A DNA stretch of 64,000 nt, from positions 95,821 to 159,820 of the IMG/VR virus record IMGVR_UViG_3300046820_002180; one strand, given 5' to 3'. Positions 19,672 through 62,018 of the stretch are shown in pieces. Every line of letters starts with the position of its first letter. Position 1 is the first letter of the stretch. The DNA is from a virus. Its lineage: Duplodnaviria > Heunggongvirae > Uroviricota > Caudoviricetes. The translations under genes and the position numbers were made by a program. Below the pieces are notes generated by a model. That model ran no database searches. It was not told the DNA's origin and worked only from the letters and a program-made list of their open reading frames with translations.

Positions 19672-19672
19672 T

Positions 19673-20293: not shown

Positions 20294-20296
20294 ATT

Positions 20297-20515: not shown

Positions 20516-20771
20516 TTTGAATCTCCCTTGCAAATAATTTAAATGTTGAACCTTCATTACTTGTAAATGTTACATTACCATTGGGACTCGGTGATAAACG
20601 AATGGTACATTCATTAGGACCCGTGGCAAACACTGTAGGTTCATTATCACCAAATTGAAAACAAAACTCAACATTTTCAGGATAGTACGCCGCTCGACTT
20701 AATGTTAAAATTTGTGTCGGTTCTAAATCTGAAAATAAACTATTATTATCCCTTAAAAATTTAAACGACAT
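20508..20771 (-). CDS. Hypothetical protein
   Basis: 87-aa ORF in the minus-strand island; ATGA overlap with the upstream GT4 gene. Confidence 0.4.
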   Translation of the reverse strand: MSFKFLRDNNSLFSDLEPTQILTLSRAAYYPENVEFCFQFGDNEPTVFATGPNECTIRLSPSPNGNVTFTSNEGSTFKLFAREIQNG

Positions 20772-22018
20772 TACTTAATTTTTGTAAGTTTTGGTAAAAC
20801 CAAATTATGTTCTTTAGGTTGAACGGTATATGGTTTAATCAAATTCATAAACACATCTTTCATTTTTTCCATTGAGAACTTTTCTTTATTTTCTTCTCTT
20901 AGTGTTTCAGATTTTTCTTTGAATTTGTCATAATCATTTTTAACTAATCTTAACACTTCTGCGAACTCATTATAGTTTGCGGTAAACCATTTAGACCCTC
21001 TTAGTATAAAACTATCAGCAGCACTTTCGTGTACATCAGTTAATGAACCACCAATCATAATCGCTTTATCCATTGGTAAGAAATCTTTATGACCTGACCA
21101 GTTAGACGCTATGATTGGCTTTCCTGTCATTGAAAATTCTAATAGAGGTCTACCAAAACCTTCACCCTTTGTGATTGATACCATCGATTTAATCTTAGGA
21201 TGATTATACAATTCATTCATTTCTTGATTAGTTAATTCACCAAACAATAGATAAACGGATGGAGGATTATCATATCCTTTTGTTAACTCTTCAATCTTTC
21301 TTCTCATATTCTCACGTTCTTTAATTGAGAATGTTGCCGAAGAAGTCTTAAGTATAAGTGCAGGTTTATCTTCAATATCTTTGAATGATTCCATAAAACA
21401 TTTAATCATCATTCCCACATCCTTTCTATCTTGACCAAGTGAACCCTTTAACCAATGACCAACAAACAAGTACGCAAAATCTTCTTTGATATCCAAATCA
21501 ATACCATTATATTCATTATTGAATGTAGAAACATCAACACCTTCAAATAGAACTTCTATCGGTTTTTGTATCTTATGTTGTTTAATTAATTTTCCTGTGT
21601 TGTTTTCATTCTCATTGTATACAGTTGATAACAACACTTCTTTTGAGAACTTTGATGTCGTTATAACTAAATCCATTCTATTACAACCATCAATCCACTC
21701 TTTAGGTGCAACTGTAGTTTCGATTCCTGCAGTTATACCAACATTAAACTTACCTCTCCTTTCAAATTCATTAGGTACAGTTACTTGAACATAAAAATCA
21801 GAGGTAACACCGGCAGGGTTAATTATGTTAGATTCAATCCACATATGAAACTGATTATCTTTTTCTAACGCAGTCATCGGAGTTGACCCCCACATACAAC
21901 TATCTATCTTAATCTCAAACAAATCCATTTCATATAATGCTTGCAACAAATCTCTTGAATGTGCACCATATCCACTTCTTGTTTTTACAGGTCCTCTAAA
22001 TAATAAAAATGGTTTCAT
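20771..22018 (-). CDS. Glycosyltransferase family 4 (group 1)
   Basis: C-terminal ISITKGEGFGRPLLEFSMTGKPIIAS matches the GT4 E-x-F-G...E...G-x-P signature. Confidence 0.55.
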   Translation of the reverse strand: MKPFLLFRGPVKTRSGYGAHSRDLLQALYEMDLFEIKIDSCMWGSTPMTALEKDNQFHMWIESNIINPAGVTSDFYVQVTVPNEFERRGKFNVGITAGIETTVAPKEWIDGCNRMDLVITTSKFSKEVLLSTVYNENENNTGKLIKQHKIQKPIEVLFEGVDVSTFNNEYNGIDLDIKEDFAYLFVGHWLKGSLGQDRKDVGMMIKCFMESFKDIEDKPALILKTSSATFSIKERENMRRKIEELTKGYDNPPSVYLLFGELTNQEMNELYNHPKIKSMVSITKGEGFGRPLLEFSMTGKPIIASNWSGHKDFLPMDKAIMIGGSLTDVHESAADSFILRGSKWFTANYNEFAEVLRLVKNDYDKFKEKSETLREENKEKFSMEKMKDVFMNLIKPYTVQPKEHNLVLPKLTKIK

Positions 22019-22019
22019 A

Positions 22020-23375
22020 TTATACTATCTTATATAAGTCAAATCTTTTTCTTGGTTTATAGTTTTCAAAAACTCTTTCAATACCTTCAATCAATGAGTT
22101 ATTCATAATGTCTGAAGATAAATTCTCAATCATAAATTCTCTACCTAACAAACCTCTTCTTTTTCTCTCTTCCTTACCCCAAGAATAAACTGTGGCAATT
22201 TTATTTGCGACCTCATCATCATTAACTCTATCGTCAAAGATGTAAGGTGTGGGCACTGAACCATTTAAGTTAATTGCTGCCGGCCAAATAGGAAGAACCC
22301 ATTCACCGTGTAATGTTGAACCGTGCGTCTTCTTATCGTGTAGAGTACCAAATGTAATGTAGTCATCGGCACTATAATTAAATCCACATTGGTCTTGTAA
22401 ACCACCAGTCACATTTACAATGATTGGTGTACCTGCCATTAATGATTCTGCAGTTGTTAAACCAAACCCTTCGTTGTTTGCTATGTTAATGGTACAATCA
22501 ACAAGATTGTAAATTTCATTTAACTTATCTTGTTCTAATTTTAAACCTGTGAACTTAACATCATAAGGACACAACGCATCAATCACAGCAGGTAAATCAG
22601 TTCCGTTCTCATCAACAGCAGCTGTGTGCATTAATAATAAACATTTGTCCGATTGTTCTTTTGGTAATTTATCACAGAATAATTTATAAGAGTAGATTAC
22701 ATCCGATGGTTGTTTTCTTCTTATGTTTCTGTTGTTATAGAATAACACAAAATCATATTCCTTGTCACCAAACATTAGTTTTTTAATATCATCACTAACA
22801 TCATCTAAAGGTTTGAATACTTTTGGATTGATTCCGTGAGGTACATAACTAATTTGCCAATCTTCCAATGGTTTATGTGTAACCTCATCAATCATTTTAC
22901 CAACTCGATGAACAATACCATAAGTTTGTTTAGATATACAACCAACCCAATCACAACTCTCGTAGTAATCTCTGTTGTACTTTGGGTCAGGTAAATCATC
23001 CCAAATGTGATAATACAATATCGGAACTTGTTGTCTTATCTCGTGTTCATTATCATATAACCATTGCCAATAATGTGGGTCAGTAAAATGTAAGATTGCG
23101 TCTGGTTTTTCAATTGCTAATAATGTTCTTAAAATATTAATATCACCATAACCGTGGCTAGGATATATTTTAAGATTTGCATCTTCAATACCTGTTCTAT
23201 CTCTCACATCTTGATTTACATCCACCACTTTACCAAACTCAGGATGTTGAATTGCAGCACCCAACTGTACCCAATCGTACTTGTGAATTGTCCCCAACAC
23301 AAGTTCCCTTGACATAGTAGATATACCTGATGTCATTCTCAAATCATCAGATAATAATAATATCTTTTTTTTCAT
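22020..23375 (-). CDS. Glycosyltransferase family 4 (group 1)
   Basis: NIANNEGFGLTTAESLMAGTPIIVNVTGG matches the GT4 signature. Confidence 0.5.
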   Translation of the reverse strand: MKKKILLLSDDLRMTSGISTMSRELVLGTIHKYDWVQLGAAIQHPEFGKVVDVNQDVRDRTGIEDANLKIYPSHGYGDINILRTLLAIEKPDAILHFTDPHYWQWLYDNEHEIRQQVPILYYHIWDDLPDPKYNRDYYESCDWVGCISKQTYGIVHRVGKMIDEVTHKPLEDWQISYVPHGINPKVFKPLDDVSDDIKKLMFGDKEYDFVLFYNNRNIRRKQPSDVIYSYKLFCDKLPKEQSDKCLLLMHTAAVDENGTDLPAVIDALCPYDVKFTGLKLEQDKLNEIYNLVDCTINIANNEGFGLTTAESLMAGTPIIVNVTGGLQDQCGFNYSADDYITFGTLHDKKTHGSTLHGEWVLPIWPAAINLNGSVPTPYIFDDRVNDDEVANKIATVYSWGKEERKRRGLLGREFMIENLSSDIMNNSLIEGIERVFENYKPRKRFDLYKIV

Positions 23376-26485: not shown

Positions 26486-26684
26486 AGAACCAAAATACCT
26501 AACTGATTTTTTTATATATAAAAAGAAACATCATTGGTTTATGATACCAACAATTGTTTTCTTTTACAATAAAGAAACTTTTTTTGAGACCGGTATATCG
26601 ATGCCAGCGTGTGGTTTATCGTTTAGATGGTTAACATTTTTTATGGGTGTACAAATACAAAAAAATGCATACTACAAAAAATAA
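26478..26684 (+). CDS. Hypothetical small protein
   Basis: 68-aa ORF. Confidence 0.3.
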   Translation: MIKEPKYLTDFFIYKKKHHWFMIPTIVFFYNKETFFETGISMPACGLSFRWLTFFMGVQIQKNAYYKK

Positions 26685-27309
26685 GTTGTGGTGTTTTGGT
26701 GATAGCTATACACAAAGATATAACCCAAACGTCGATTGGTGTAAAAGTTACATCGATTATAAAGGTTATTTACCAAAAGTTTATTGTGATTTTTTAGGTG
26801 AAAAATTGGGGATTGAAAGTGAGAACTTAGGAGTTGGGGGATATGATAATTATTCTATTTTCGGAACCTTGTGTAATAACGTACATAGAATTAAAGAAAA
26901 TGATATTGTAATTATTGGTTGGTCGAGTGTGATTAGATTTAGACTTGCAGCTAAAGATGGTGATTGGGTGAAATTTGTACCTGGCACCGTAACGGATTAT
27001 CACATCACTCATCACACCGATATGTCAAGAAACACGATTGAGGAAATTTTTGTTAATAGAGACAATCCAATCTATTATAGAGAAGTCAATAATTGGATTC
27101 ATTTTATTAATCATACAATGAAGAAAAATAAAATAATTCATTGGACACCATTTGATGATAATGTTGATTTAAATGTACATAAGTTGTTAAAACTCGAGAC
27201 AATAAAAATGGATAGTAATAATATTGTTAATGATAATCACTATGGTGAGAATGCACATAAAACTCTTACCAATATATTTTTTGAATTACTAAAAGATAAA
27301 TTAATATGA
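26647..27309 (+). CDS. SGNH/GDSL-family hydrolase (paralog 4)
   Basis: KLWCFGDSYTQ block I, NLGVGGYDNYSIF block II, NDNHYGENAHKTLTNIF block V. Confidence 0.5.
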   Translation: MYKYKKMHTTKNKLWCFGDSYTQRYNPNVDWCKSYIDYKGYLPKVYCDFLGEKLGIESENLGVGGYDNYSIFGTLCNNVHRIKENDIVIIGWSSVIRFRLAAKDGDWVKFVPGTVTDYHITHHTDMSRNTIEEIFVNRDNPIYYREVNNWIHFINHTMKKNKIIHWTPFDDNVDLNVHKLLKLETIKMDSNNIVNDNHYGENAHKTLTNIFFELLKDKLI

Positions 27310-36165: not shown

Positions 36166-36582
36166 ATGATTGAAAAGTTTGAACCCTACCACCAACATCT
36201 TTTAATGAAGATTTGGATTAAGAATCCCCCTAAAGAGGTAGAAGTTTTAAATAAATGGTTTGTTGACTTAGTTCACAAAGTTAAGATGGAGGTTGTTGGG
36301 GGACCAACAAGTGTTTATGTAGATTATCCTGGTAATGAAGGTTTAACAGGTACAGTAACTTTAGCAACATCACATTCATCAATACACATTTGGGACCACC
36401 ACCAACCGGCAATGGCTCAATTTGACATTTACAGTTGTAAATGTTTCACATTACAAGACGTTATGGAACAGTTTGAACCTTGGGGAATCGTTGAAGCGGA
36501 GTGGGTTATGATTGATAGAAATAACTCACCAGCTATTATATCTGAAGGTAAATGGACACCGCAACCCGAACATATTGATTAA
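36166..36582 (+). CDS. S-adenosylmethionine decarboxylase proenzyme-like (SpeH/class 1 pyruvoyl type)
   Basis: GLTGTVTLATSHSSIHIWDHHQPAMAQFDIYSCK aligns with the AdoMetDC self-processing region (…ISESH.SIHTWPE…AIDLFTCG). Confidence 0.5.
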   Translation: MIEKFEPYHQHLLMKIWIKNPPKEVEVLNKWFVDLVHKVKMEVVGGPTSVYVDYPGNEGLTGTVTLATSHSSIHIWDHHQPAMAQFDIYSCKCFTLQDVMEQFEPWGIVEAEWVMIDRNNSPAIISEGKWTPQPEHID

Positions 36583-36636: not shown

Positions 36637-37233
36637 ATGAAAGTTATTTTTTTAGACCACGACGGTGTTATATGTTTGGCAACCGAGTGGGGAGGTAGGG
36701 TTAAAAAACAACTTAAGGTAAAACGTAAGTTGAGTCAATCGGTATCATCTTTACCCGTTGATGTGAGATTTGATAATTTTAACAAGAAAGCTATTGAGGT
36801 ATTAAACGAAATACTTGAAGAAACGGGTGCGGAAATTGTTGTCTCATCCGATTGGAAGAAATGGGCTGATGTTAAAGAAATGGGAGAGTACTATGAATCA
36901 CAAGGAATCATAAAAAAACCAATAGGATTTACCAAGAGTGTATCTAATTGTACTTGTTATAATGAACACACATTTGCGTGGTCACCAAGATGGATGTTAG
37001 AACAGGAACGTTCAATCGAAATTACTCAATATCTACACGACCATCCTGAGATTACTCATTGGGTTGCCGTTGATGATTTAAATATGGGTATTCCACAAGT
37101 TCACGAATCGTGGGGGGATATGGAAATGGATTGGGGATTAAGTAATTTTGTACTAACACCTAAACGTATGGAAGGTATTAAGCAATCAGGTATTAAAGAG
37201 AAAATTTTAAACTACTTAACAGAAAACAAATGA
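36637..37233 (+). CDS. HAD-superfamily phosphatase-like protein
   Basis: N-terminal VIFLDHDGVI matches HAD motif I (DxDGx). Confidence 0.45.
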   Translation: MKVIFLDHDGVICLATEWGGRVKKQLKVKRKLSQSVSSLPVDVRFDNFNKKAIEVLNEILEETGAEIVVSSDWKKWADVKEMGEYYESQGIIKKPIGFTKSVSNCTCYNEHTFAWSPRWMLEQERSIEITQYLHDHPEITHWVAVDDLNMGIPQVHESWGDMEMDWGLSNFVLTPKRMEGIKQSGIKEKILNYLTENK

Positions 37234-39059: not shown

Positions 39060-39087
39060 TCATTTTTTAATTTTTTTCAATATTGTT

Positions 39088-39116
39088 TTGGATTTATCAA
39101 ATATATTCTTATATTT
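39088..39116 (+). promoter_or_regulatory. Sigma70-like promoter candidate TTGGAT-N16/17-TATATT, about 6 nt upstream of the ATG
   Basis: Hexamers in the 62-nt gap before the 39122 gene, same geometry as the 16442 promoter. Confidence 0.3.
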
Positions 39117-39121
39117 GACTT

Positions 39122-41490: not shown

Positions 41491-41519
41491 AACCTCACAA
41501 ATGTGAGGTTTTTTTTTGT
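41491..41519 (+). terminator. Rho-independent terminator
   Basis: AACCTCACA aat TGTGAGGTT followed by nine Ts. Confidence 0.7.
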
Positions 41520-41552
41520 TATTCAAGAATATATTTTATATTTGTATTTTAA

Positions 41553-41738
41553 ATGAATATTATGAAAAATACAAGTAAATTCCTCAAACTACTGTTAGTG
41601 ATGGCATCACCCGGATTGTTCATCATTTTTTACCCGAAAATCAATATGGATTTTGGATTGTTGATTTTTTTTGTTATATTTTTTACATCTGTTATTCACA
41701 CCTTTAATTTCATAAAAAATGATTTACGTATCAATTGA
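41553..41738 (+). CDS. Small membrane protein
   Basis: 61-aa ORF with two hydrophobic segments. Confidence 0.3.
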   Translation: MNIMKNTSKFLKLLLVMASPGLFIIFYPKINMDFGLLIFFVIFFTSVIHTFNFIKNDLRIN

Positions 41739-42387
41739 TATTGAGACATCCGGTCTTGACCACGAGAAACACAAAGTATTATCCATCGGTGCAATCATCG
41801 AAGATACTGAAAAGAAGTTACCATATGAAGAATGTCCCAAGTTCAATGCAATAGTCCTTCAAAACGAAATCACAGGTTCACCAAGAGCAATCACGATGAA
41901 CAAAGAAATCATTGCAATGATTGGTGAATATCTTGAAGGGACTAATGAGACTAGACATTTAATGAACACACATTCTGATTATAGTTTTTATGAGAAAGAA
42001 GATGTGATTAAAGAATTTTATTACTTCTTAGATAAGAATGGATTTGGCCACGGACTAACCAACAGTGGTGGTTATGCCGAAGTTGTTGATGGCGTAACCA
42101 GACCAATGATTAATGGTGGTACCAAACCAATCACATTAAATGTTGCGGGTAAAAACTTTGGAACGTTTGATAAACTATTTTTACAAGAACTTCCTTGGTG
42201 GCAAAAGTTAATTCGTACTCGTCAAAGAGTTTTGGACCCGGCAATCTTAATGGTCGATTGGGTAAACGATAAGTCATTACCAAACTTAACAGTTTGTAAA
42301 GAACGTGCGGGTGTTAAAGGTATTGTTACACATAATGCATTGGAAGATGCGTGGGATGTTATTGAAGTATTGAGAAGATGGTATTAA
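41719..42387 (+). CDS. DEDDh 3'-5' exonuclease (DnaQ-like)
   Basis: Exo I motif VSIDIETSGLD and Exo III motif HNALEDAWDV. Confidence 0.6.
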   Translation: MIYVSIDIETSGLDHEKHKVLSIGAIIEDTEKKLPYEECPKFNAIVLQNEITGSPRAITMNKEIIAMIGEYLEGTNETRHLMNTHSDYSFYEKEDVIKEFYYFLDKNGFGHGLTNSGGYAEVVDGVTRPMINGGTKPITLNVAGKNFGTFDKLFLQELPWWQKLIRTRQRVLDPAILMVDWVNDKSLPNLTVCKERAGVKGIVTHNALEDAWDVIEVLRRWY

Positions 42388-43389: not shown

Positions 43390-43710
43390 ATGTCATATAT
43401 TATTGGAAAGAAATGTATTAATTGTTTGGATACCAGTTGCGTATCTGTTTGTCCTGTCGATGCTATCAATGGACCAATCCATATTGATAGAATAGCTTCG
43501 GAGATTTCTACAATGTCGAAGGAGGAATTGTTCGGTAAACAATTATACATAAATCCTGACACTTGTATTGATTGTGGTGCTTGTGAACCTGAATGTCCTG
43601 TTGATGCAATATTCCCAACAGAAGAAGTTGCAGTTTCAATGGGGGACAAAGAATCGGTAATTACCAATTACGGATTTTATGGGATGACATATAAAAAATT
43701 CGAACAATAA
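43390..43710 (+). CDS. 2x[4Fe-4S] ferredoxin
   Basis: Two CxxCxxCxxxCP clusters ([18 protein letters not shown] and [16 protein letters not shown]). Confidence 0.7.
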
Positions 43711-44159: not shown

Positions 44160-45074
44160 ATGGCATTCGAATCGTTTGAAGAAAGGTATGCTCGCCAAAT
44201 GAAAGAGCGTGATGAAGAACAATTAAAAGCAAAATTAAAACTAAAAAAAATTATGAGAAACATTTTAATCGGAGTAGGATTATTTTTTACATTAACTTTT
44301 TTATTTTTCTCGTGTGAGAGAATCGACGCAGGACACGTAGGTGTAAAAGTTAACCAATATGGTGACAATAAAGGTGTTGATGACGTGGTAGCAGTTACAG
44401 GTATGGTGTTTTATAACCCATTCACAACTACAGTGTATGAATTTCCTACATTCATTCAACACAAAGAGTATAAAGGAGAGAATTCATTTGTTGTGAATAG
44501 TAAAGATGGTAGTGAATTCAGTGTCTCACCAATTATGAACTATTCAGTACAGAGAGAGAAAGTACCAGCTATTTTTAGTAAGTATCGTAGACCATTAGAG
44601 GACATCGAAGAAGGATTCTTAAAGACTGCTGTATACGATGCATTCAGATTGGCAACTAACAAGTATACCGCTGATGAGTTGATTAGTAACAGAGCAGTAT
44701 TTGAAATTGAAGTTCGTAGATTATTGGACGGTCAGCTATTAAAAGAGGGATTTGTAATTAATCAATTCACTTCTAATTTGATTTATCCTGAAACATTTAA
44801 GAAATCAATTGAAGCTAAGAACAACGCAGTTCAAGCGGCGTTAAGGGCTGAGAATGAAGTTAAAACTGCGGAAGCACAAGCAAAGATTAAAGTGGCAACC
44901 GCAGAGGGTAACGCTCAAGCAATGTTAACATCCGCAAAGGCTGAGGCGGAATCAAATAGAATGAAACAACAAACATTGACCCCATTGTTATTACAATTAG
45001 AGTACATTAATAAGTGGGATGGTAAGTTACCGGTATATGGAACAGTACCTCAAATGTTTAAAAATATTCAATAA
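44160..45074 (+). CDS. SPFH/band-7 (stomatin/HflKC-like) membrane protein
   Basis: N-terminal transmembrane segment followed by SPFH-like core and C-terminal Ala/Glu/Lys-rich coiled coil. Confidence 0.55.
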   Translation: MAFESFEERYARQMKERDEEQLKAKLKLKKIMRNILIGVGLFFTLTFLFFSCERIDAGHVGVKVNQYGDNKGVDDVVAVTGMVFYNPFTTTVYEFPTFIQHKEYKGENSFVVNSKDGSEFSVSPIMNYSVQREKVPAIFSKYRRPLEDIEEGFLKTAVYDAFRLATNKYTADELISNRAVFEIEVRRLLDGQLLKEGFVINQFTSNLIYPETFKKSIEAKNNAVQAALRAENEVKTAEAQAKIKVATAEGNAQAMLTSAKAEAESNRMKQQTLTPLLLQLEYINKWDGKLPVYGTVPQMFKNIQ

Positions 45075-45613
45075 TGAAATTTATTAAGACAGACATCGAT
45101 GGATGTTTTCTTATCACATACGAATCATTTCACGACGATAGAGGATTCTTCTCGGTACCGTACAATAAAGAAGACTTTAATCAAAATGTAGGTTATGATG
45201 TTGAGTTTGTTCAGGATAATATGTCATATTCTCATTATGGGACCATTAGAGGACTTCATTTTCAAAAGGGAGAGTATGAACAGGCTAAGTTAGTAACGTG
45301 TACACAAGGACGTGTTTTGGACGTTGTGGTGGATATTAGAAAGGACTCTTCAACCTATGGTGAGGTTGTTAAGGTGGAGTTGGGATGGTCTTTGAATAGA
45401 CAACTCTTCGTTCCAAGGGGATGTGCTCACGGATTCTCAGTATTGAGTACTAACGCAATCTTTCAATACAAGGTTGATAATCAATACAATAAGGAGTCTG
45501 AAGGTGGAATTGTTTATAACGATGAAACCCTAAAAATTGATTGGAAAGTACCAGATGGTCAAAAAAGAGTATCAGATAAGGATTTAGAATTACCAAGTTT
45601 TATATCTTTGTAG
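45074..45613 (+). CDS. rmlC: dTDP-4-dehydrorhamnose 3,5-epimerase (RmlC, cupin)
   Basis: FHDDRGFF, IRGLHFQ, AKLVTCTQGRVLDVVVDIRKDSSTYGE, FVPRGCAHGF motifs of RmlC. Confidence 0.65.
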   Translation: MKFIKTDIDGCFLITYESFHDDRGFFSVPYNKEDFNQNVGYDVEFVQDNMSYSHYGTIRGLHFQKGEYEQAKLVTCTQGRVLDVVVDIRKDSSTYGEVVKVELGWSLNRQLFVPRGCAHGFSVLSTNAIFQYKVDNQYNKESEGGIVYNDETLKIDWKVPDGQKRVSDKDLELPSFISL

Positions 45614-45626: not shown

Positions 45627-46061
45627 ATGTATAATATGGAAGATAAAGAATATGTTGGTGATTTAATCTTACTACGAGGAGTACCTGGTTCAGGTAAAAC
45701 TACGGTTGGTGAGGTTATTTTGAGATGTGTAAGAGGTGATAATCCCGATGTTTTATCTGCGGATAACTTCTTTATGTCTGATAAAGGAATTTACAATTTC
45801 GATGGTTCAAAATTGAAAGAGGCACATAATGATTGTCTTTTGAAATGTGCTGAGAGAATGAAGAATGAGTTCAGTAGAATCGTTGTAGCGAATACATTCA
45901 CTGAAGAGTGGGAAATGGAGAAGTACTTTGAAATTGCTGAAAGATATAAATATCGTGTTCATACTCTTGTTGTGGAGAATCGTCACGGGGGTAATAATGT
46001 ACACGGCGTACCAGATGAAAAGGTCGAACAAATGAGAGACCGATTCAACGTTAAGTTATAA
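45627..46061 (+). CDS. P-loop kinase (polynucleotide-kinase/AAA_33-like)
   Basis: Walker A GVPGSGKTT in a 144-aa protein; sits next to a phosphoesterase and an RNA ligase. Confidence 0.5.
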   Translation: MYNMEDKEYVGDLILLRGVPGSGKTTVGEVILRCVRGDNPDVLSADNFFMSDKGIYNFDGSKLKEAHNDCLLKCAERMKNEFSRIVVANTFTEEWEMEKYFEIAERYKYRVHTLVVENRHGGNNVHGVPDEKVEQMRDRFNVKL

Positions 46062-46065
46062 TTTA

Positions 46066-46093
46066 ATCCCCGATTTTTCGGGGATTTTTTTTT
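46066..46093 (+). terminator. Rho-independent terminator
   Basis: ATCCCCGA tttt TCGGGGAT followed by a T8-9 run. Confidence 0.65.
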
Positions 46094-46149
46094 GATATTT
46101 TGTAATATCAATAATAATATGTATTTTTACGTAAAAGAACTTACTAACA

Positions 46150-46650
46150 ATGGGAACAAATTATTATCGAATTCCAACGGTGGAAGAGATGGAAAACAAA
46201 AAGACCAAACTAATTCGTAGTGTCACCAATTTAGACATATCACCATCTAACATTGAATGTGGATTTAGAGTTGCGGTTGACGACCAATGGGGTTCAGAAT
46301 CACCTTGGGATACATTTATTGACGGCACTAATATTCATTTAGGTAAACGAAGTAGTGGTTGGAAATTCTGTTGGAATTTTCACAACAACAAATACTACTC
46401 GAATAAAGAAGAACTACTTAAATTCATTCGAGATGGTCGTGTTGTTGATGAATATGGAGAAGAGTTAGATGTGAATGAGTTTATTGTGATGGCTCTTAAT
46501 TGGGGAGAACCTGATGGTTTGGTTGTTAATAAAGAGTATCGTAAACAAGAAAGAATAAAAGGTCACGGGTCATTTTGGACTGATAGTGAAAAATATGACG
46601 ATTTAATAATCGATGGACTTCGAGTAAGTACATCAACTGATTTTTGTTAA
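46150..46650 (+). CDS. Hypothetical protein
   Basis: 166-aa ORF between the kinase and the phosphoesterase. Confidence 0.45.
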   Translation: MGTNYYRIPTVEEMENKKTKLIRSVTNLDISPSNIECGFRVAVDDQWGSESPWDTFIDGTNIHLGKRSSGWKFCWNFHNNKYYSNKEELLKFIRDGRVVDEYGEELDVNEFIVMALNWGEPDGLVVNKEYRKQERIKGHGSFWTDSEKYDDLIIDGLRVSTSTDFC

Positions 46651-46654
46651 TAAG

Positions 46655-47308
46655 ATGATAAAGATAGAAAACGATGTAAAGGTTTGGATAACATCCGATA
46701 CACACTATAACCATAGTAATATATGTCGCGGAACTACCAAATGGAGAATGCCTGATGGTTCGATACCGATAGCACAAACAAGAGATTTTGAAACTATCGA
46801 TAAAATGAATTCCTCAATTGTAAACAACATCAATGAATTGGTAGGTCAAGATGATGTATTAATACATTTGGGTGATTGGTCGTTTGGTGGGTTTGAACAA
46901 ATAGAAGAATTTTACAATAGATTAATCTGTAAGAATATTCATTTAGTTTTGGGTAATCACGACCACCACATCGATAGAAATCGAGACGATATCCGTAATA
47001 AATTTCTAAGTGTTAATTGGTTTGAACAATTCTCATACCAAGGTGAAACAATAGAAATGTGCCACTATCCAATATCATCGTGGAATGGACTTCGTAAAGG
47101 ACGTGTTCATCTTCACGGACATTGTCATTTACCTAACCATAAAAAGTATAGTAATGGACGTAGAATGGATGTTGGTATGGATGGTAACCTTGAGTTCGCA
47201 CCATACGATTTGAAGAAGGTATTGAACGATATGAAGAAAAGAGAGATAGGTTCAGAACTTGGTGCCGATGACCATCACGTAGATGATATGTTAAACGTTG
47301 ACAGATGA
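46655..47308 (+). CDS. Calcineurin-like metallophosphoesterase
   Basis: WITSDTHYNH (DxH), HLGDWSFGG (GD) and VLGNHDHH (GNHD) motifs. Confidence 0.6.
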   Translation: MIKIENDVKVWITSDTHYNHSNICRGTTKWRMPDGSIPIAQTRDFETIDKMNSSIVNNINELVGQDDVLIHLGDWSFGGFEQIEEFYNRLICKNIHLVLGNHDHHIDRNRDDIRNKFLSVNWFEQFSYQGETIEMCHYPISSWNGLRKGRVHLHGHCHLPNHKKYSNGRRMDVGMDGNLEFAPYDLKKVLNDMKKREIGSELGADDHHVDDMLNVDR

Positions 47309-48501
47309 AATTAGAGACATTAGAAAAATATCACAAAGACGGGTTGTTACATAAACAGACTCACCCAACTCTCGATTTAACTATTTGGAATTATGGTCCA
47401 AGAGTTCAATACGAAAAGTTGTGGGACGATGTTACAATCCAATGTCGTGGATTGGTCACCAATTCAAAAGGTGATATTGTTGCACGACCTTTTAAGAAAT
47501 TCTTCAACTACGAAGAACATAAACCAGAAGATTTACCAAATGAAACTTTTGAGGTTTATGAAAAGATGGATGGTTCATTAGGTATTCTTTTCTATTACGA
47601 ATATGAATTGAGTGACGAGAAAAGATATAACATATGGTTTAATAACAATTATGAAACAGGTATGGAAAGGTTCTTTGACCCAAACAACTTACCTGATTTT
47701 GATAACCCATATTATGAACCAACACCAAAAACAAAAGGTGAGTGGATAATGGCAACTCGTGGTTCATTCACATCGTCACAATCTATTAAAGGAAAAGAAC
47801 TTTTAGATAGATATGATTTCGAGAGACTACATAAGGGTTACACATATTTGTTTGAGATAATTTACAAAGAGAATAGAATAGTATGTGAATATGATTATGA
47901 AGATATAGTTTTGTTAGGAATGATTGAAACAAAATCAGGAAATGAAGTTGATATTCGCAACAGTAATGAAGATATTCGTTTTCAAAATATGATTTCCAAT
48001 ATTGGATTTCGTGTTGTTATGTTATATAAAACTTGGGGAGAAGGATATGATTTGTTGAAGGAAGAAATATCAAATGATAGAGAGGGATATGTTGTTCGTT
48101 TCAAGAATGGTTTTCGTATGAAAATCAAAGGAGAAGAGTACAAACGACTTCATAGAATTTTAACCAATGTATCCAATCGTGACATATGGGAATATCTAAG
48201 AGCTGGTAAACCACTTGATGAAATATTAGATAAAGTACCGGACGAATTCTATGATTGGGTAAAGAGTGAAGAAAATAAATTTACACAAATGTTTAATATC
48301 ACAAAAACAATGGCGGAGTTAACATTTATGAAATTTATAAAACCTGAAATGTCTAGAAAGGAGTCTGCCCTAATTATAAAAGAACAAAAATTAGATTTAC
48401 AGTCACTCCTATTTAGGATGTTAGATAATAAAGATTACACGGATTTGATTTGGAAAAATCTTTATCCAAAATATTCAAAACCATTTAAAAAAGATGAATA
48501 A
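47305..48501 (+). CDS. RNA ligase (Rnl1-like nucleotidyltransferase)
   Basis: Motif I YEKMDGSL (KxDGSL, cf. T4 Rnl1 KEDGSL), motif IV REGYVVRF, motif V RMKIKGEEY. Confidence 0.6.
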   Translation: MKLETLEKYHKDGLLHKQTHPTLDLTIWNYGPRVQYEKLWDDVTIQCRGLVTNSKGDIVARPFKKFFNYEEHKPEDLPNETFEVYEKMDGSLGILFYYEYELSDEKRYNIWFNNNYETGMERFFDPNNLPDFDNPYYEPTPKTKGEWIMATRGSFTSSQSIKGKELLDRYDFERLHKGYTYLFEIIYKENRIVCEYDYEDIVLLGMIETKSGNEVDIRNSNEDIRFQNMISNIGFRVVMLYKTWGEGYDLLKEEISNDREGYVVRFKNGFRMKIKGEEYKRLHRILTNVSNRDIWEYLRAGKPLDEILDKVPDEFYDWVKSEENKFTQMFNITKTMAELTFMKFIKPEMSRKESALIIKEQKLDLQSLLFRMLDNKDYTDLIWKNLYPKYSKPFKKDE

Positions 48502-48982
48502 AAATAAAATTTACTTATATCTTGACGATGTAAGAACACCAACAGAAGGTGATTGGAAAGTAGTAAGAAACTATGATGAGTTTGTTACCCAAATAAGACT
48601 TAATGGTTTGGAAAACTATGAAGTTATATCATTGGACCACGACTTAGGTGAACTCTCAATGGTTGAATACTATACAAACGTAAAAAATAACTACACATTA
48701 AACTATGATAATATAGTTAATGAGAAAACAGGTTATGATTGTTGTAAGTGGTTAGTTGCTGAGAGTATGAATAAAAACATACCCTTACCACAGATATACA
48801 TCCACTCAGCAAACCCAATTGGTTCCGCAAATATGATGGGGTACATCAACAATTATTTTATGAATAGTAGATTACCTCAAACGTGTGTGAGAGTTCAAAT
48901 CCCACATACAATTGATGAGACGCATATGTTATCACCTGAAGCAAGAAAAGCTAAATGGGACAGAACAAATAACCTCAAATAA
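48494..48982 (+). CDS. Hypothetical protein
   Basis: 162-aa ORF; start overlaps upstream stop. Confidence 0.4.
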   Translation: MNKNKIYLYLDDVRTPTEGDWKVVRNYDEFVTQIRLNGLENYEVISLDHDLGELSMVEYYTNVKNNYTLNYDNIVNEKTGYDCCKWLVAESMNKNIPLPQIYIHSANPIGSANMMGYINNYFMNSRLPQTCVRVQIPHTIDETHMLSPEARKAKWDRTNNLK

Positions 48983-49033: not shown

Positions 49034-50116
49034 ATGTCAAAGATAAAAGAACTTAAAACCGACACACAAAATGTCTTAAATTTAATAGATGTTTTAGAGT
49101 TGTTCAGTCCTGAAAAGAAATCAAAGTACACAGACACGTTACTAAGATTAATGAGAAACACCAGTTCATTAGATGAACACATACTTGAAATCAAAACATC
49201 ATTGATTAATAAATTTGATTTCATTCGAATGGAGGATTTGAATAATTTTTCTGACATTCAAGTTTTATTAATGTTTAGATTTCTTGACGCGTTCTTTAAT
49301 TTTGAAGATTTAAGAAGTTTTAGAAAGTTTTGTGAATATAACGAAAGAGGTTTAATTTCACAAAATGATTTAAGTAAGTATAAATCATTTGACGATGTTT
49401 TAAATCAATTGAGTACGGCTGAAATGAAAGTCACAACAAAACAGATGGAAACCCAAATAGTTAAATTAATGGACACTGACGAGTGGTTAATTGTTAGACC
49501 ATTAACATATTTGGCATCTAAAAAATACGGTTCAAATACAAAATGGTGCACAACGTCAGAAGGTAATCCTGAATATTTTATCAAGTACTCAACCAAAGGA
49601 GTGTTAATATATTGTATTAATAAAGTAACAGGATATAAAGTTGCAAGTTTTTATTCATTAGATAAAAATGACCCTGAGTTTTCTTTTTGGAATCAAAAAG
49701 ATAGTAGAATTGATTCATTAGATACTGAATTGACTGACGAGATTAGACTTTTGATTCAATCTGTTTCTAAAGACAAGAAAGCAAAAACAAATAGATTTTT
49801 ATTGTCCGATGAACAAAGGGTTATCGAAGATAAATTAATGAAAAATAATTCAGATTTATTCAAAGAACCATCTCTCATAGGAGAAGAGTTAAGAGAAGCC
49901 ATTTCAATGGAAGAACCATCTCCAATTATGGAAGAACCGGTTCAAGAAGAGAGACAAGATAGATTAAATCCTTTTAATCAAGCAATTGAAAGAAGAAATG
50001 AAGAGAGAAGAGTAAGAGAAAGAAGGTTGATGGGTGAATCAGAAGAAAGAAATGAAGAACGTCAGTATGAAGATAGAGAAAATCAACCTCAAACATTCCG
50101 TTCAGGCTCACTATAA
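49034..50116 (+). CDS. Hypothetical protein with C-terminal Glu/Arg-rich low-complexity tail
   Basis: 360-aa ORF; tail EERNEERRVRERR...EERNEERQYEDRE. Confidence 0.5.
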   Translation: MSKIKELKTDTQNVLNLIDVLELFSPEKKSKYTDTLLRLMRNTSSLDEHILEIKTSLINKFDFIRMEDLNNFSDIQVLLMFRFLDAFFNFEDLRSFRKFCEYNERGLISQNDLSKYKSFDDVLNQLSTAEMKVTTKQMETQIVKLMDTDEWLIVRPLTYLASKKYGSNTKWCTTSEGNPEYFIKYSTKGVLIYCINKVTGYKVASFYSLDKNDPEFSFWNQKDSRIDSLDTELTDEIRLLIQSVSKDKKAKTNRFLLSDEQRVIEDKLMKNNSDLFKEPSLIGEELREAISMEEPSPIMEEPVQEERQDRLNPFNQAIERRNEERRVRERRLMGESEERNEERQYEDRENQPQTFRSGSL

Positions 50117-50649: not shown

Positions 50650-51015
50650 ATGATTAGTCCTTACGTTTATCCGGGTATTAAACAAACATTATTACCTAAA
50701 AAGAAGAGAATCAAAAGAAGTCTTATTTCCCCTGAAAAAATTATGAGTATCGTTGCAGAACATTGTGGCGTGACTGTAACTGAAATTCTTTCAAGAGGAA
50801 GAAAAAGAGAAGTATGTGACGCAAGACACATATTTTGCGCAGTAATGAGAAAAGAATTTTCTTACCCTTTAAAAAGTATTGGTGAAATGGTTAGTGGTAG
50901 AGACCACACAACCGCAATTCATTCTATCCAAACCTTCAATGATAGGTACAAAAATGAAGACGGTTATAAAGAATTGGCCGATACAATCGTTGATGACGTT
51001 TTCCAAAGAATATAA
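50650..51015 (+). CDS. DnaA C-terminal (domain IV) DNA-binding domain-like protein
   Basis: VAEHCGVTVTEILSRGRKREVCDARHIFCAVMRKEFSYPLKSIGEMVSGRDHTTAIHSI matches the DnaA helix-turn-helix domain signature (sR.r.i..aR.iamyl...t..sl..iG..fggRdHtTV). Confidence 0.5.
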   Translation: MISPYVYPGIKQTLLPKKKRIKRSLISPEKIMSIVAEHCGVTVTEILSRGRKREVCDARHIFCAVMRKEFSYPLKSIGEMVSGRDHTTAIHSIQTFNDRYKNEDGYKELADTIVDDVFQRI

Positions 51016-51050: not shown

Positions 51051-51066
51051 TTTGGAATATTCAAAA
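51051..51066. promoter_or_regulatory. Near-palindrome TTTGGAATATTCAAAA (copy 2 of the TTTGGAATATTCCAAA element) followed by TATTAT
   Basis: One mismatch from the perfect 16-mer; 20 nt upstream of the 51086 ATG, with TATTAT between. Confidence 0.4.
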
Positions 51067-51085
51067 ACATTATTATCTTTGTGAT

Positions 51086-52749: not shown

Positions 52750-53502
52750 ATGAGTAAATTGTGGACATTTGGATGTAGTTTTACCGCTGAATATGATTTT
52801 ACATCGTATTTGAAACCCGGTCAAAGTGATGAATCTGAGAATAATAATATCAGATATAGAAAATATCGCGGTGGTGAGGTAAGTGATGTGTGGCCCACAA
52901 TTGTTGCAAGAGAATTAGGATTAGAAAAAGAAAATATGGGATATCCTGGTTTTTCTAACTACAGAATATTCAACAGATTTTCCGCAAACTGCCAAAGAAT
53001 CCAAAAAGGTGATGTGGTAATTGTTGAATGGTCGAGAAAAGAGCGATTCGATATTGTCAATAAAAATATGGGTAGACACCATCAAATGGTATCTGTAATC
53101 CCATCTGAAGCCCATAGTCACGTACAATATGATTTGGAGGTTATGCAACAAATCTTGGTTAATCGAACAAATCCTATTTGGTGTGAAGAGATTTATTCCT
53201 TTATGAAATTAATAAAGGAATTAAGTCTTGCCAAGCAATTTGAATTGTATTTTTGGTCGGCAGATAAAGAGATAATTAACAAAGAAGATAACTCATTTAA
53301 GTACAAATACAATTGTTTAGTACCTGAAGCAAACACTGATATGACTAAGTTCCTTCGTGAGTACGGTGCACAAAGTTTTCACGAAGAGACCAATAGGATT
53401 TTACCAGATGATGAACATTATGGTGAAGTTGGTCATCGAGTAATGGCGGAAACGTTTCTTAGAGACATAAACAGATATAGAAACGGATATTATAATGAGT
53501 AA
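52750..53502 (+). CDS. SGNH-family hydrolase (paralog 5; tandem array member 1)
   Basis: MSKLWTFGCSFTAE block I (Cys replaces Asp), NMGYPGFSNYRIF block II, DDEHYGEVGHRVMAETF block V. Confidence 0.5.
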   Translation: MSKLWTFGCSFTAEYDFTSYLKPGQSDESENNNIRYRKYRGGEVSDVWPTIVARELGLEKENMGYPGFSNYRIFNRFSANCQRIQKGDVVIVEWSRKERFDIVNKNMGRHHQMVSVIPSEAHSHVQYDLEVMQQILVNRTNPIWCEEIYSFMKLIKELSLAKQFELYFWSADKEIINKEDNSFKYKYNCLVPEANTDMTKFLREYGAQSFHEETNRILPDDEHYGEVGHRVMAETFLRDINRYRNGYYNE

Positions 53503-54241
53503 GTTATGGACATTTGGTTGTAGTTACACCGCAGAATATCATCCGGTGAGTTCTATGAATGGTGATAAAAACAACTATATGTTATATCGAGATTGGTTGG
53601 GTGGAACGTTACCTGAAACTTGGCCACATAGATTAGGTAGAATGTTGGGTATGGAGGTTGAAAACAAAGGATTGGGTGGTAGTTCTAATGACCATATTTT
53701 TGGTGCGTTCTGTGATAGTTGTGAAATGATAAGTGAGGGCGATATTGTTGTGATTGGTTGGACACAACTTGCAAGATTTTGGATTGGTAGTTATGATGAA
53801 AAACAATCACCAAAATTTACCGCAGTACTTCCGAATCTCACAAAAAATAGCGACATCAATTCAACTCATATGTCGACAGAAACATTAGAATTTCTTTTAG
53901 TTGAGAGGATGAATCCGTTATATGTTAAAGAAATATATAGTAGACAAGGTGTAATTGAAGAACTCTCAAAACATAAAGGTTTTGAGATATTTTTTTGGTC
54001 GAGTGATAGTAAAATTATCTATGATGAACCAAAGGAATTTAAAAATAAAAAAAAATACCTTTGTTCCGATTCTGTTGATGGTGTGTTAACACATCTAATT
54101 AGAAAAAGAGGAGCGAAAACAGTTGAGATGGAAACAAAGGGAAAGATACCTGATTTACATTTTGGTGAAATAGGACATCAGGTTCAGGCGGAAGTTTTCT
54201 ACAAAGAAATCTCCACCAAAATAAAAAAGAGTTTATTATGA
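53495..54241 (+). CDS. SGNH-family hydrolase (paralog 6; tandem array member 2)
   Basis: MSKLWTFGCSYTAE, NKGLGGSSNDHIF, DLHFGEIGHQVQAEVF. Confidence 0.5.
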   Translation: MSKLWTFGCSYTAEYHPVSSMNGDKNNYMLYRDWLGGTLPETWPHRLGRMLGMEVENKGLGGSSNDHIFGAFCDSCEMISEGDIVVIGWTQLARFWIGSYDEKQSPKFTAVLPNLTKNSDINSTHMSTETLEFLLVERMNPLYVKEIYSRQGVIEELSKHKGFEIFFWSSDSKIIYDEPKEFKNKKKYLCSDSVDGVLTHLIRKRGAKTVEMETKGKIPDLHFGEIGHQVQAEVFYKEISTKIKKSLL

Positions 54242-54843
54242 TTAGAGTAATATGGGTATTTGGTAATAGTTTCAGTAATAGTAGTTGGGTAACTCTATTA
54301 GGTGTGAAATTAGGACACCAAGTTAAAAACTTATCAAAAGATAAAACCTGCAACTATCAAATCTTTGATGATTTTTGTAGTGTATGTGACTTGATTCATA
54401 GTGATGATATTGTTATAATTGGTTGGGGTAATGTTTCTAATTTTAGAACACCATTCAATGATGAATTTATTAGTTACGGTCCAAATGATTTAGGTGACGA
54501 ACATATCGACTCAACATATATTGAGAATGTGGTTAGAGATAGGTCATCTGAAAAATGGTGTGAACAGATTTATTACTATGAAAATATTTTAGATGAACTC
54601 GCGAAATCAAAGAGATATAATTTGTTTTTTTGGTCAAGTGATGAGGATAGGTTGATATATCCAGCAAGACCATCATTCAAAGCAAAAAGAAGTTACTTAT
54701 GTAATGAGTCAACAACTTGTTTGGTTAAGTATTTTGAAGAGAAAGGTGCAACTGTAATTGATAATAAGTTCGATGAGGTTGGAAATGAAATAGTTGCTGA
54801 TAAATTTTATAATGAAATAAACACGAGGATACATTCTTTATAA
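54238..54843 (+). CDS. SGNH-family hydrolase-like protein, possibly degenerate (paralog 7; tandem array member 3)
   Basis: VIWVFGNSFSN block I retained, but block V reads FDEVGNEIVADKF with no His. Confidence 0.4.
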   Translation: MIRVIWVFGNSFSNSSWVTLLGVKLGHQVKNLSKDKTCNYQIFDDFCSVCDLIHSDDIVIIGWGNVSNFRTPFNDEFISYGPNDLGDEHIDSTYIENVVRDRSSEKWCEQIYYYENILDELAKSKRYNLFFWSSDEDRLIYPARPSFKAKRSYLCNESTTCLVKYFEEKGATVIDNKFDEVGNEIVADKFYNEINTRIHSL

Positions 54844-55538
54844 TGAAACTGTGGATATTCGGAGATTCCTTTAGTCAGAAGTTCAGTGACTTCGACCAAA
54901 AACTTTACGACCCTATTGATTATAGGGTGAGATACCATATTTGGAAAGGGTACTCTCCGAAGTGTTATGGTGAGATTATATCGGATAAATTGGAATGTGA
55001 TTTGGAAATATTAGCATCTGCAGGAAACTCAAATGATGAAATATTCCATAGTTTTATTGAGGTGATGGACCAAATTCAATCTGGTGACATTGTAATAATC
55101 AATTGGACATATCCTAATAGATTTAGAATTGCAGACGATAATAACAAATTTGAGAAGATTATGATTCAAGCGGGTTGTAAATCACCCAATAGATTCGTGT
55201 CCGAAAAAAGTTTGGAGGAGATTGGTGTAAATCGTAATTTCTCAAGTATATATTATAAGGAGGTTTCTAACTACACCAAAATAATAAAAAAGACTTGTGG
55301 TGAAGACATCCTCTCAATATTTTGGTATTTTTCTAACTTGAACATAGAAAGAAAATTTGACCAAAATGTCATTAGTTTTTTTGAAAATGTGATTCCATTA
55401 CACGAATATGAAACACTCACAATCGAGACATTGGGTGTGATGGAAGATGGTCACTATTCAGAAGATGGACATAAGGATTTAGCTAACGATTTATATAAAA
55501 TAATCGATATATGGACTCAAACAAAACAGACAAAGTAG
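54843..55538 (+). CDS. SGNH/GDSL-family hydrolase (paralog 8; tandem array member 4)
   Basis: MKLWIFGDSFSQ block I, SAGNSNDEIF block II, EDGHYSEDGHKDLANDL block V. Confidence 0.5.
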   Translation: MKLWIFGDSFSQKFSDFDQKLYDPIDYRVRYHIWKGYSPKCYGEIISDKLECDLEILASAGNSNDEIFHSFIEVMDQIQSGDIVIINWTYPNRFRIADDNNKFEKIMIQAGCKSPNRFVSEKSLEEIGVNRNFSSIYYKEVSNYTKIIKKTCGEDILSIFWYFSNLNIERKFDQNVISFFENVIPLHEYETLTIETLGVMEDGHYSEDGHKDLANDLYKIIDIWTQTKQTK

Positions 55539-56218: not shown

Positions 56219-56234
56219 TTTGGAATATTCCAAA
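56219..56234. promoter_or_regulatory. Perfect 16-bp palindrome TTTGGAATATTCCAAA followed by TATAAT (copy 3)
   Basis: Perfect palindrome in the 35-nt intergenic gap; TATAAT at 56237-56242, ATG at 56254. Confidence 0.45.
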
Positions 56235-56253
56235 AATATAATAACTTTACACT

Positions 56254-61227: not shown

Positions 61228-61554
61228 ATGTTAGAATTCAAATTCTTTAATAAAGCAATTGTTAAAGCTCACGATGGTGGATTGATTTATTGTGATGAAT
61301 TTTTTTATACGGTGAATAAAGAAGATATGATATCACCTCGGTTCAATAAAAAAATACCAAAGTATACTATTGTGACAAGATACATTCATAATAAATTTAA
61401 AAATAAGTTTAAACCTGACCACGAAGCGTTATGGTATTTTAGGTCCAAGGAAAACGCTTATTGGTTAATTGAACATTGGAAAAGACAAGACGAAATTGAG
61501 ATTGGAAAAAAATTTCATACCATTGCTGACCACACAATAACATTTAATCGATGA
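61228..61554 (+). CDS. FKFF-motif small protein family member
   Basis: N-terminal MLEFKFFNK; central YTIVTRYIHNKF. Confidence 0.45.
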   Translation: MLEFKFFNKAIVKAHDGGLIYCDEFFYTVNKEDMISPRFNKKIPKYTIVTRYIHNKFKNKFKPDHEALWYFRSKENAYWLIEHWKRQDEIEIGKKFHTIADHTITFNR

Positions 61555-62018
61555 ACATATTCTATTTGGATAAGAACCCCACAAGATGTGCAAGATACCA
61601 CAATGACAAACACGTTGTTAAGATGATACTTGAAACCGCACAACTATTGTGTGGTGTACATTGGGTAACCGGTTCGGAAGCACCATACAAACTATCTCAT
61701 AAGAATCATCCTTGTGCAATATGGACAAGAACCAACACAGAAAACTACAGATGGTTATGTATGTTGGGTATTCAACTATGTTGGGAGTATAAGCGTAGAT
61801 ATCTTAAAACACACAAATCATATGATATCATTCTATGGTGTTGTGATAACCCACCAAACATACCAGAAGGTAAGTTTACCGAACCACCACTAGCGATGCC
61901 TAATGAGTACAAAGAAATGTGTCACGTCCAATCCTACAGAAACTACTACAACTTTGCCAAGAGTTCATTTTCAAAGTGGAAGAATGGTGAGATTCCTGAA
62001 TGGTTTATTCCAATGTAA
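61551..62018 (+). CDS. Hypothetical protein
   Basis: 155-aa ORF; ATGA overlap. Confidence 0.4.
   Translation: MNIFYLDKNPTRCARYHNDKHVVKMILETAQLLCGVHWVTGSEAPYKLSHKNHPCAIWTRTNTENYRWLCMLGIQLCWEYKRRYLKTHKSYDIILWCCDNPPNIPEGKFTEPPLAMPNEYKEMCHVQSYRNYYNFAKSSFSKWKNGEIPEWFIPM

Follow-up and report, generated by a model that had tools for sequence, protein, structure and literature searches.

Gene content and layout of the locus

The stretch of DNA analyzed here (the window) comprises 64,000 nucleotides (nt) of an uncultivated Caudoviricetes phage, corresponding to positions 95,821-159,820 of IMG/VR record IMGVR_UViG_3300046820_002180. It is densely coding, with approximately 32% G+C and a dominance of plus-strand genes. 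The locus of interest encodes a small P-loop kinase, a calcineurin-like metallophosphoesterase (MPE), an RNA ligase of the Rnl1 family, and a cyclic-phosphate processing receiver-like protein (cREC), which we consider together as a predicted RNA end-healing and sealing module (Table 1). A preliminary description of this DNA had placed the open reading frames (ORFs) of the kinase, of an orphan protein (unk166), of the MPE, and of the ligase correctly, and had read the kinase, MPE, and ligase as a three-protein module. The cREC gene had been missed, and the set therefore comprises at least four proteins.

Table 1. Positions of the features discussed in the text (aa, amino acids; bp, base pairs)
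Feature	Positions in the window	Strand	Family match or sequence feature
Stand-alone polynucleotide-kinase-like P-loop kinase, 144 aa, predicted RNA 5'-OH kinase	45627..46061	+	Pfam AAA_33
Intrinsic terminator ending the kinase transcript	46065..46093	+	9-bp GC-rich stem, 4-nt loop, run of T
Candidate Bacteroidota-type promoter	46099..46129	+	-33 TTTG at 46099-46102, 19-nt spacer, -7 TATTTTTA at 46122-46129
unk166, orphan, 166 aa, first gene of its transcription unit	46150..46650	+	Matches no family
MPE, calcineurin-like binuclear metallophosphoesterase, 217 aa, predicted 2',3'-cyclic/3'-(2'-)phosphate end-healing esterase	46655..47308	+	Pfam Metallophos, phrog_547
Rnl1-family ATP-dependent RNA ligase, 398 aa, predicted sealing enzyme	47305..48501	+	PF09511, phrog_562
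cREC, predicted 2',3'-cyclic phosphodiesterase	48494..48982	+	PF20274
HAD_SAK_2 "Swiss Army Knife" RNA-repair HAD, possible second 3'-phosphatase, 9 kb upstream	36637..37233	+	PF18143
Orphan, 360 aa, adjoining cREC, possible associate	49034..50116	+	No Pfam match

The MPE, ligase, and cREC genes are packed tightly and partly overlap behind a conserved candidate promoter. The 3' end of the MPE gene overlaps the start of the ligase gene by 4 nt, and the first 8 nt of the cREC gene are shared with the 3' end of the ligase gene, stop codon included. A terminator had already been noticed after the kinase gene and was recovered here as a 9-bp stem (AATCCCCGA-TTTT-TCGGGGATT, 46065-46086) that begins 4 nt past the kinase stop codon and is followed by a run of T. 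Given the terminator-promoter-unk166-MPE unit between kinase and ligase, the kinase gene would close a first transcript, and (unk166)-MPE-Rnl1-cREC would make up a second.

The candidate promoter has the form TTTG, 19-nt spacer, TAnnTTTG, which corresponds to the published Bacteroidetes promoter consensus, and its reading as a promoter depends on this correspondence. In 16 aligned leaders, the -7 box (consensus TAnnTTTG) keeps its T, A, and TTT without exception and its final G in at least 90%. An extended motif, TTTGG-AATATC-AAAAA...TAnnTTTG, recurs between genes on the plus strand at 39087-39117, 41515-41544, 46099-46129, 51051-51081, and 56219-56249, and a strong terminator precedes the copy at 46099. 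Transcripts that start at these recurring promoter-like motifs probably belong to a single temporal class. When the window was compared with reference phages at the DNA level, the sole match was a weak one to Flavobacterium phage immuto. Because of the promoter type and the hosts of the nearest cultured relatives, the host is probably a member of the Bacteroidota.

Family assignments of the encoded proteins

The three domain assignments made in the preliminary description held in profile searches, with matches to AAA_33, Metallophos, and RNA_lig_T4_1 all above the Pfam gathering scores. The ligase matched RNA_lig_T4_1 (PF09511) with an E value of 4.7e-17 (63 bits; gathering score, 28.3) and phrog_562 with an E value of 3.4e-66. 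Among PDB sequences, it matched T4 Rnl1 entries only (E value, 4e-7). As no DNA ligase was found among these matches, its description as Rnl1-like, against which a DNA ligase had been named as the alternative, stands. The ligase carries the motifs KMDGSL, EGYVV, and MKIKG, and its residues K87, E184, E260, and K273/K275 align with K99, E159, E227, and K240/K242 of the T4 enzyme. Motif I (K87-M-D-G-S-L) pairs with T4 K99-E-D-G-S-L, and 16 homologues show no variation at K87, D89, G90, S91, or L92. The same holds for motif Ia and for motifs III, IV, and V (E184 in FEIIY, E260-G261 in EGYVV, and K273/K275 in MKIK). The C-terminal helical domain of T4 Rnl1 confers specificity for tRNA. In this region, the alignment of the window ligase with PHROG 562 reaches profile position 370 of 377, and the direct alignment with T4 Rnl1 ends at approximately residue 293. 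An insert of approximately 47 aa (YELSDEKRYNIWFNNNYETGMERFFDPNNLPDFDNPYYEPTPKTK; residues ~99-145, window positions 47599-47740) lies between motifs I and Ia; it is present in most close relatives and missing in six more distant ligase homologues. With a score above the Pfam threshold but far below the NCBIfam cut-off for T4 RnlA (see below), the ligase is a divergent member of the Rnl1 family and not an equivalog of T4 RnlA.

PHROG 562 is annotated as "RNA ligase and tail fiber protein attachment catalyst." T4 gp63/Rnl1 has tail-fiber attachment as a second activity, and the homologue in the window might act mainly in this way, with neighbors of unrelated function. We consider this barely conceivable, since all nucleotidyltransferase motifs are invariant and synteny with the kinase and cREC genes is conserved (see below). 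The ligase gene also stands among end-healing rather than morphogenesis genes, and the window has its tail-fiber gene at 9867-14705.

The kinase matched AAA_33 with an E value of 7.6e-12 (46 bits; cut-off, 27). Its Walker A motif reads RGVPGSGKTT, of which G18-V-P-G-S-G-K24-T is invariant in homologues. D46 (in L-S-A-D-x-F-F), R119, and R139 are likewise invariant and are candidates for the general-base Asp after strand 2 and for the lid arginines (D35 and R126 in T4); A-N-T-F stands where a D-x-T-N motif is usual. The structure model of the kinase was nearest to T4 Pnk, the CthPnkp kinase, and Pnkp1, with every nucleotide kinase ranking behind. The modeled fold is thus closer to those of polynucleotide kinases than to those of nucleotide or small-molecule kinases. 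The best PDB sequence match of the kinase-family profile was the tRNA-splicing RNA 5'-OH kinase of Mucorales (E value, 6e-5; PMC11571804). The 737-position profile PHROG 8238 aligns with the kinase in its N-terminal part and with the ligase at positions 428-518, which shows that fused kinase-ligase proteins exist. Kinase fusions were also considered as Rosetta-stone evidence and discarded, as the best 120 homologues in a large database were all stand-alone proteins of approximately 140 aa with generic names. The kinase additionally matched the PADLOC model CARF4--CARF_PDDEXK_AAA (E value, 1e-13); a domain of the same kinase type is therefore also fused to CARF/PD-(D/E)xK in candidate CRISPR-associated defense proteins.

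The cREC protein matched PF20274 with an E value of 2.1e-23 (83 bits; cut-off, 27), and residues D11-D12, S46-x-D48-H-D50, T79-G80, and H104-S-A-N107, among them the acidic residues typical of receiver domains, are invariant. The family was defined by Iyer et al. in 2021, who tied it to RNA ligases in operons (PMC7824862). In the literature, the family is predicted to open 2',3'-cyclic phosphate (or 1''-2'' cyclic ADP-ribose phosphate), and the function assigned to the window protein follows this prediction (PMC7824862, PMC9503650).

Matches of the MPE were to Metallophos (PF00149; E value, 2.9e-9; 38 bits; cut-off, 21.5) and to phrog_547 (E value, 1.9e-43). Its motifs are SDTHYNH (DxH), GDWSFGG (GD), GNHDHH (GNHD), and GHCH, and D15-x-H17, G73-D74, G100-N-H-D103, H137, and G155-H-x-H158 are invariant in 15 homologues. 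The binuclear metallophosphoesterases CthPnkp and lambda phosphatase hydrolyze both 2',3'-cyclic phosphates and phosphomonoesters (PMC2190708). Neither was matched by the MPE when all PDB chains were searched at E values up to 1, with the single sequence or with the family profile; the only match in both cases was the uncharacterized Aquifex protein aq_1665 (1xm7; E value with the profile, 3e-9). The MPE thus appears to lie outside the CthPnkp/lambda-phosphatase clade. A HAD phosphatase reported farther upstream was found as well and belongs specifically to HAD_SAK_2 (PF18143; E value, 3.4e-20).

Conserved gene order and the unk166-MPE unit

Gene order was compared in 80 viral loci each centered on the ligase, the MPE, and unk166, which were then de-duplicated. 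Among 55 distinct ligases, the kinase gene lies directly upstream in 53 and the cREC gene directly downstream in 43, and the grouping of the three genes therefore exceeds chance. Kinase-Rnl1-cREC is a conserved core that uncultivated phages of a large clade have in common.

An MPE gene between kinase and ligase was found only in near-identical relatives of the window. In most relatives of the clade, the unk166-MPE pair is instead located far from the ligase, behind the RNA-repair HAD gene, which stands two genes upstream of the pair (HAD, M23 peptidase, unk166, MPE). In 29 of 48 distinct loci, a hairpin homologous to the terminator, with compensatory changes in the stem, stands 65 to 85 nt ahead of unk166, and a conserved leader also precedes that gene, irrespective of what is encoded upstream. 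Kinase-ligase junctions without an insertion, in which the gap is 0 to 743 nt, have no such hairpin and no strong terminator. The unk166-MPE pair with its own terminator and promoter is thus a separate conserved unit. As hairpin and promoter travel with this pair whatever lies upstream, the layout of the window is secondary, the terminator-promoter-unk166-MPE unit having come to lie inside a kinase-ligase junction. The same observations led us to reject the terminator as a split of an ancestral kinase-MPE-ligase operon. The preliminary description had pointed out that kinase, phosphatase, and ligase follow one another as the domains of bacterial Pnkp do. This order is indeed present but is a coincidence and a lineage-specific accident, since in most relatives the kinase gene abuts the ligase gene and unk166 and the MPE gene are found elsewhere.

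The unk166 protein had no match in Pfam, PHROG, or NCBIfam. It is widespread, has a confidently predicted fold without a known relative, and carries an invariant signature, H-x-G-K-x-S-x-G-W-x-F. The next recognizable gene downstream of unk166 encodes the MPE in 57 of 78 loci, and in the clade of the window phage the gene layout suggests that the two are cotranscribed. In relatives, a gene for a denV-like pyrimidine-dimer glycosylase, which in the window is located at 61551-62018, is often found directly upstream of unk166.

A near-identical phage (IMGVR_UViG_3300032287_002121, locus L085) shows a precise absence of unk166: its positions 5926-6001 correspond to 46061-46655 of the window, with terminator and promoter joined straight to the MPE start codon. 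Because of this clean natural deletion, unk166 is dispensable and was ruled out as an obligatory member of the module. The same phage also lacks the SPFH gene (44160-45074 in the window), in line with natural presence/absence variation of accessory genes. Another relative, whose ligase is 100% identical (IMGVR_UViG_3300043447_000408, locus L161, 6495-6929), carries a small ORF with predicted transmembrane helices between unk166 and the MPE gene, and in other relatives the gap between the two is 350 to 2,200 nt. The unk166-MPE junction is therefore an insertion hot spot. That unk166 is more than a passenger, serving RNA end healing as a functional partner (a new enzyme or a specificity factor), seems to us quite improbable; if it were so, the protein would handle a 2'-phosphate or direct the phosphatase to broken tRNA in a module that has neither sirtuin nor KptA.

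The 360-aa orphan next to the cREC gene may be an unrecognized associate of the module. It has no Pfam match, a profile search of the PDB was empty, and its 935 homologues are all unnamed. Homologues with 26 to 31% identity lie between kinase and MPE genes in distant loci (L109-L140). YG-x-NTKWC is part of the conserved core of the protein, which ends in an E- and R-rich tail. A PcfJ-like identity, for which there was one weak Pfam hint, was discarded because hhalign gave a probability of 0.2 against the true PcfJ protein of the window.

Several other genes of the window are recorded here as side observations. Directly upstream of the kinase lies a gene for dTDP-4-dehydrorhamnose 3,5-epimerase (RmlC; 45074-45613). 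Auxiliary genes around the module encode an S-adenosylmethionine (AdoMet)-decarboxylase-like protein (36166-36582), an RNase T/DnaQ-like exonuclease (41719-42387), a 2x[4Fe-4S] ferredoxin (43390-43710), and a protein resembling the C-terminal helix-turn-helix (HTH) domain of DnaA (50650-51015). The sole long minus-strand block (16937-23375) is a sugar-modification cluster with three GT2 and two GT1/GT4 glycosyltransferases and an NAD-dependent epimerase/dehydratase, and one of these glycosyltransferases matches the "GT4-conflict" family. At 76-7096, a tryptophan-halogenase-like flavoprotein (E value, 1.6e-68) is followed by several proteins with 2OG-Fe(II) oxygenase domains, an oxidative set that is unusual for a phage. 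A paralogous family without a Pfam domain spans 26647-27309 and 52750-55538; its ORFs at 26647, 52750, 53495, 54238, and 54843, four of them in tandem, match one stretch of a related contig with 26 to 38% identity.

Proposed role in RNA repair and comparison with known systems

RNA-cleaving defenses are common and include anticodon nucleases, HEPN toxins, Cas13, and retron or PARIS-type effectors. To our knowledge, the only phage countermeasure studied biochemically is that of T4 Pnkp/Rnl1. We consider it probable that the module is a phage RNA end-healing and sealing system, most likely one that restores tRNAs or other RNAs cut by metal-independent ribonucleases of the host. From the observed family identities, gene packing, and synteny, we infer its activities, its substrate, and the kind of nuclease that it opposes. 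Such nucleases would leave 2',3'-cyclic-phosphate and 5'-OH ends. The cyclic phosphate would be opened by cREC, by the binuclear MPE, or by both, and the MPE, perhaps backed by the HAD_SAK phosphatase, would strip the remaining phosphate to yield a 2',3'-diol. Should cREC leave a 2'-phosphate, the MPE or the HAD would have to take it off. The fold and motifs of the 144-aa kinase suggest that it phosphorylates the 5'-OH. Finally, the conserved catalytic motifs of Rnl1 are consistent with its adenylylation on K87, transfer of AMP to the 5'-phosphate, and sealing of the nick.

The RNA heal-and-seal role put forward in the preliminary description is supported by conserved synteny, but the link of the MPE is weaker than those among kinase, ligase, and cREC. 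Only the latter three might repair RNA, with 3'-end healing done by cREC and the HAD_SAK phosphatase; the MPE and unk166 would then be unrelated accessory proteins that landed here by chance, the MPE acting, for example, on a nucleotide signal, on deoxynucleoside triphosphates (dNTPs), or on DNA ends. The unk166-MPE unit has its own terminator and promoter and is usually located elsewhere, the window also encodes an RNA-repair HAD, and the MPE falls by sequence outside the CthPnkp/lambda-phosphatase clade, all of which would fit such a division. In distant phages, the MPE gene nevertheless occurs near the same kinase family, cREC, or Rnl1 in varied orders. Among 58 distinct MPE homologues, a kinase gene lies within 6 kb in 34 (adjacent in 16), an Rnl1 gene in 13, and a cREC gene in 17. 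The genes are linked in at least eight orders, including kinase-MPE, MPE-kinase-Rnl1, MPE-cREC-kinase-Rnl1, and cREC-MPE-Rnl1. This repeated, order-independent linkage points to a shared function and is hard to account for otherwise. Moreover, the four families are adjacent in rV5-like Escherichia coli phages, the MPE and ligase genes of the window share 4 nt, and in the phage without unk166 the promoter leads straight into MPE-Rnl1. A chance arrival of the MPE is therefore, in our view, unlikely. We regard a part of the MPE in 3'-end healing as likely, though with less confidence than the parts assigned to the kinase, ligase, and cREC.

Several observations weigh against the proposed repair function or against parts of it. 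In most close relatives, the MPE gene is far from the ligase gene, with more than 200 kb between them on one 298-kb contig. Among cultured phages, the MPE family is far commoner (932 records) than the ligase (371) or cREC (116). The MPE often occurs without the other two, and in Cellulophaga phage phi17:2 it is found among DNA-replication genes, beside DNA polymerase and primase. With cREC, MPE, and HAD, there are three candidate phosphoesterases, which may divide the labor in more than one way. The ligase scored 62.1 bits against the NCBIfam equivalog TIGR02308 ("T4 RnlA family"), below the cut-off of 242.25. The 64-kb window holds no anticodon-nuclease-related genes and no tRNA genes. Finally, cREC is explicitly called uncharacterized in PMC9503650.

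The module might also have no part in counterdefense and serve the nucleic acid metabolism of the phage itself, such as phage RNA processing or splicing or the healing of DNA ends. T4 Pnk is known to act on both DNA and RNA ends, no host nuclease has been identified for the module, and the neighboring genes are of mixed auxiliary functions. On the other hand, the characterized member of the Rnl1 family seals breaks in the anticodon loop of tRNA, and the window is free of tRNA genes, introns, and Rfam RNAs. cREC and HAD_SAK are confined to RNA-repair or ADP-ribose contexts (PMC7824862, PMC9503650). Taken together, a role confined to the phage's own metabolism appears very improbable, and we retain RNA repair against host ribonucleases as the preferred reading.

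Under this reading, the locus is of interest because its kinase-Rnl1-cREC core is kept throughout a very large group of related uncultivated phages that probably infect Bacteroidota, with the MPE as an optional addition, and because the set also occurs in tractable rV5-like coliphages. It offers a compact set of proteins for studying the activity of cREC and the resolution of cyclic phosphates without a sirtuin, KptA, or 2H enzyme. The locus alone adds an example and not a new principle. What seems worth keeping is the predicted chemistry of cREC, the assembly of the layout out of two conserved units, and the orphan protein of new fold with which the operon begins.

The arrangement is less unusual than the preliminary description had supposed. 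A replacement of HAD phosphatases by calcineurin-like phosphatases has been reported in a few jumbo phages (PMC7824862). Similar neighborhoods were described in phages V5 and Mydo by Iyer, Burroughs, Anantharaman, and Aravind in 2022 (PMC9503650); they combine a sirtuin and MazG with cREC, a T4-like ligase, and a nucleotide kinase, and a calcineurin-like esterase joins them occasionally. In the cultured Escherichia phage magaca (Vequintavirus, MN850612.1; locus L252, 3871-6226), the genes for all four families are adjacent (MPE, kinase, Rnl1, cREC) and are followed by two Sir2 genes. Profiles of the window families matched magaca_79 (kinase; E value, 2.7e-44), magaca_80 (MPE; 2e-23), magaca_78 (Rnl1; 1e-22), and magaca_77 (cREC; 4e-5). 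The homologue of the P-loop kinase, magaca_79, is labeled "putative phosphoesterase" and that of cREC, magaca_77, "hypothetical"; the public annotation of magaca thus hides a complete kinase-MPE-Rnl1-cREC set.

The window shares with the rV5-like/Mydo sirtuin neighborhoods the adjacency of the four families and the position of cREC after the ligase. In contrast to them, no sirtuin (SIR2), MazG, KptA, 2H, Nudix, or Macro domain was detected in Pfam scans of the ORFs of at least approximately 80 aa in the 64-kb window, nor was RtcB or Hen1. The window genes are also codirectional, whereas in magaca the kinase and MPE genes are divergent from the ligase gene. Further differences are the orphan ORF, the internal terminator and promoter, and a host that is probably a member of the Bacteroidota and not a proteobacterium.

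The closest cultured relatives at the protein level are Flavobacterium phage vB_FspM_immuto and Cellulophaga phages phi17:2 and phi4:1, which infect Bacteroidota. Identities to immuto and the Cellulophaga phages are 48% and 41% for the MPE and 62% and 36% for cREC, respectively. In the stretches examined, these phages have no kinase or Rnl1 gene near the MPE or cREC gene, and both proteins are annotated generically or as hypothetical. In immuto (MW353176.1; locus L250, 5874-9027), the MPE gene directly follows four tRNA genes (Cys, Ser, Glu, and Gln), and the cREC homologue ("hypothetical protein") is encoded three genes downstream.

T4 counters the anticodon nuclease PrrC with PseT (Pnkp) and RnlA. 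The T4 kinase is fused to a HAD (DxDxT) phosphatase, whereas the kinase of the window stands alone, its adjacent phosphatase is a binuclear metallophosphoesterase, and cREC is an extra component. The T4 genes are not adjacent, and the window ligase is only approximately 25 to 30% identical to T4 RnlA over the aligned core and scores below the equivalog threshold. Compared with Pnkp-Hen1 of Clostridium thermocellum and Pnkp1-Rnl-Hen1 of Capnocytophaga, the window proteins are separate, their genes are interrupted by a further ORF and a terminator, and neither a Hen1 methyltransferase nor an RNA methyltransferase domain was found in the Pfam scans. The window MPE has no detectable sequence match to the phosphatase domain of CthPnkp or to lambda phosphatase, the ligase is of the Rnl1 type and not a Pnkp ligase domain, and the gene order is not kept in relatives. 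As its proteins are unfused, its kinase carries no HAD domain, Hen1 is missing, and its MPE is by sequence not lambda-phosphatase-like, the module would work like T4 PseT plus RnlA and bacterial Pnkp but belongs to neither architecture. By its gene content, it is best placed as a sirtuin-less, codirectional example of a kind of RNA repair system that had already been predicted and whose biochemistry is likewise a matter of prediction.

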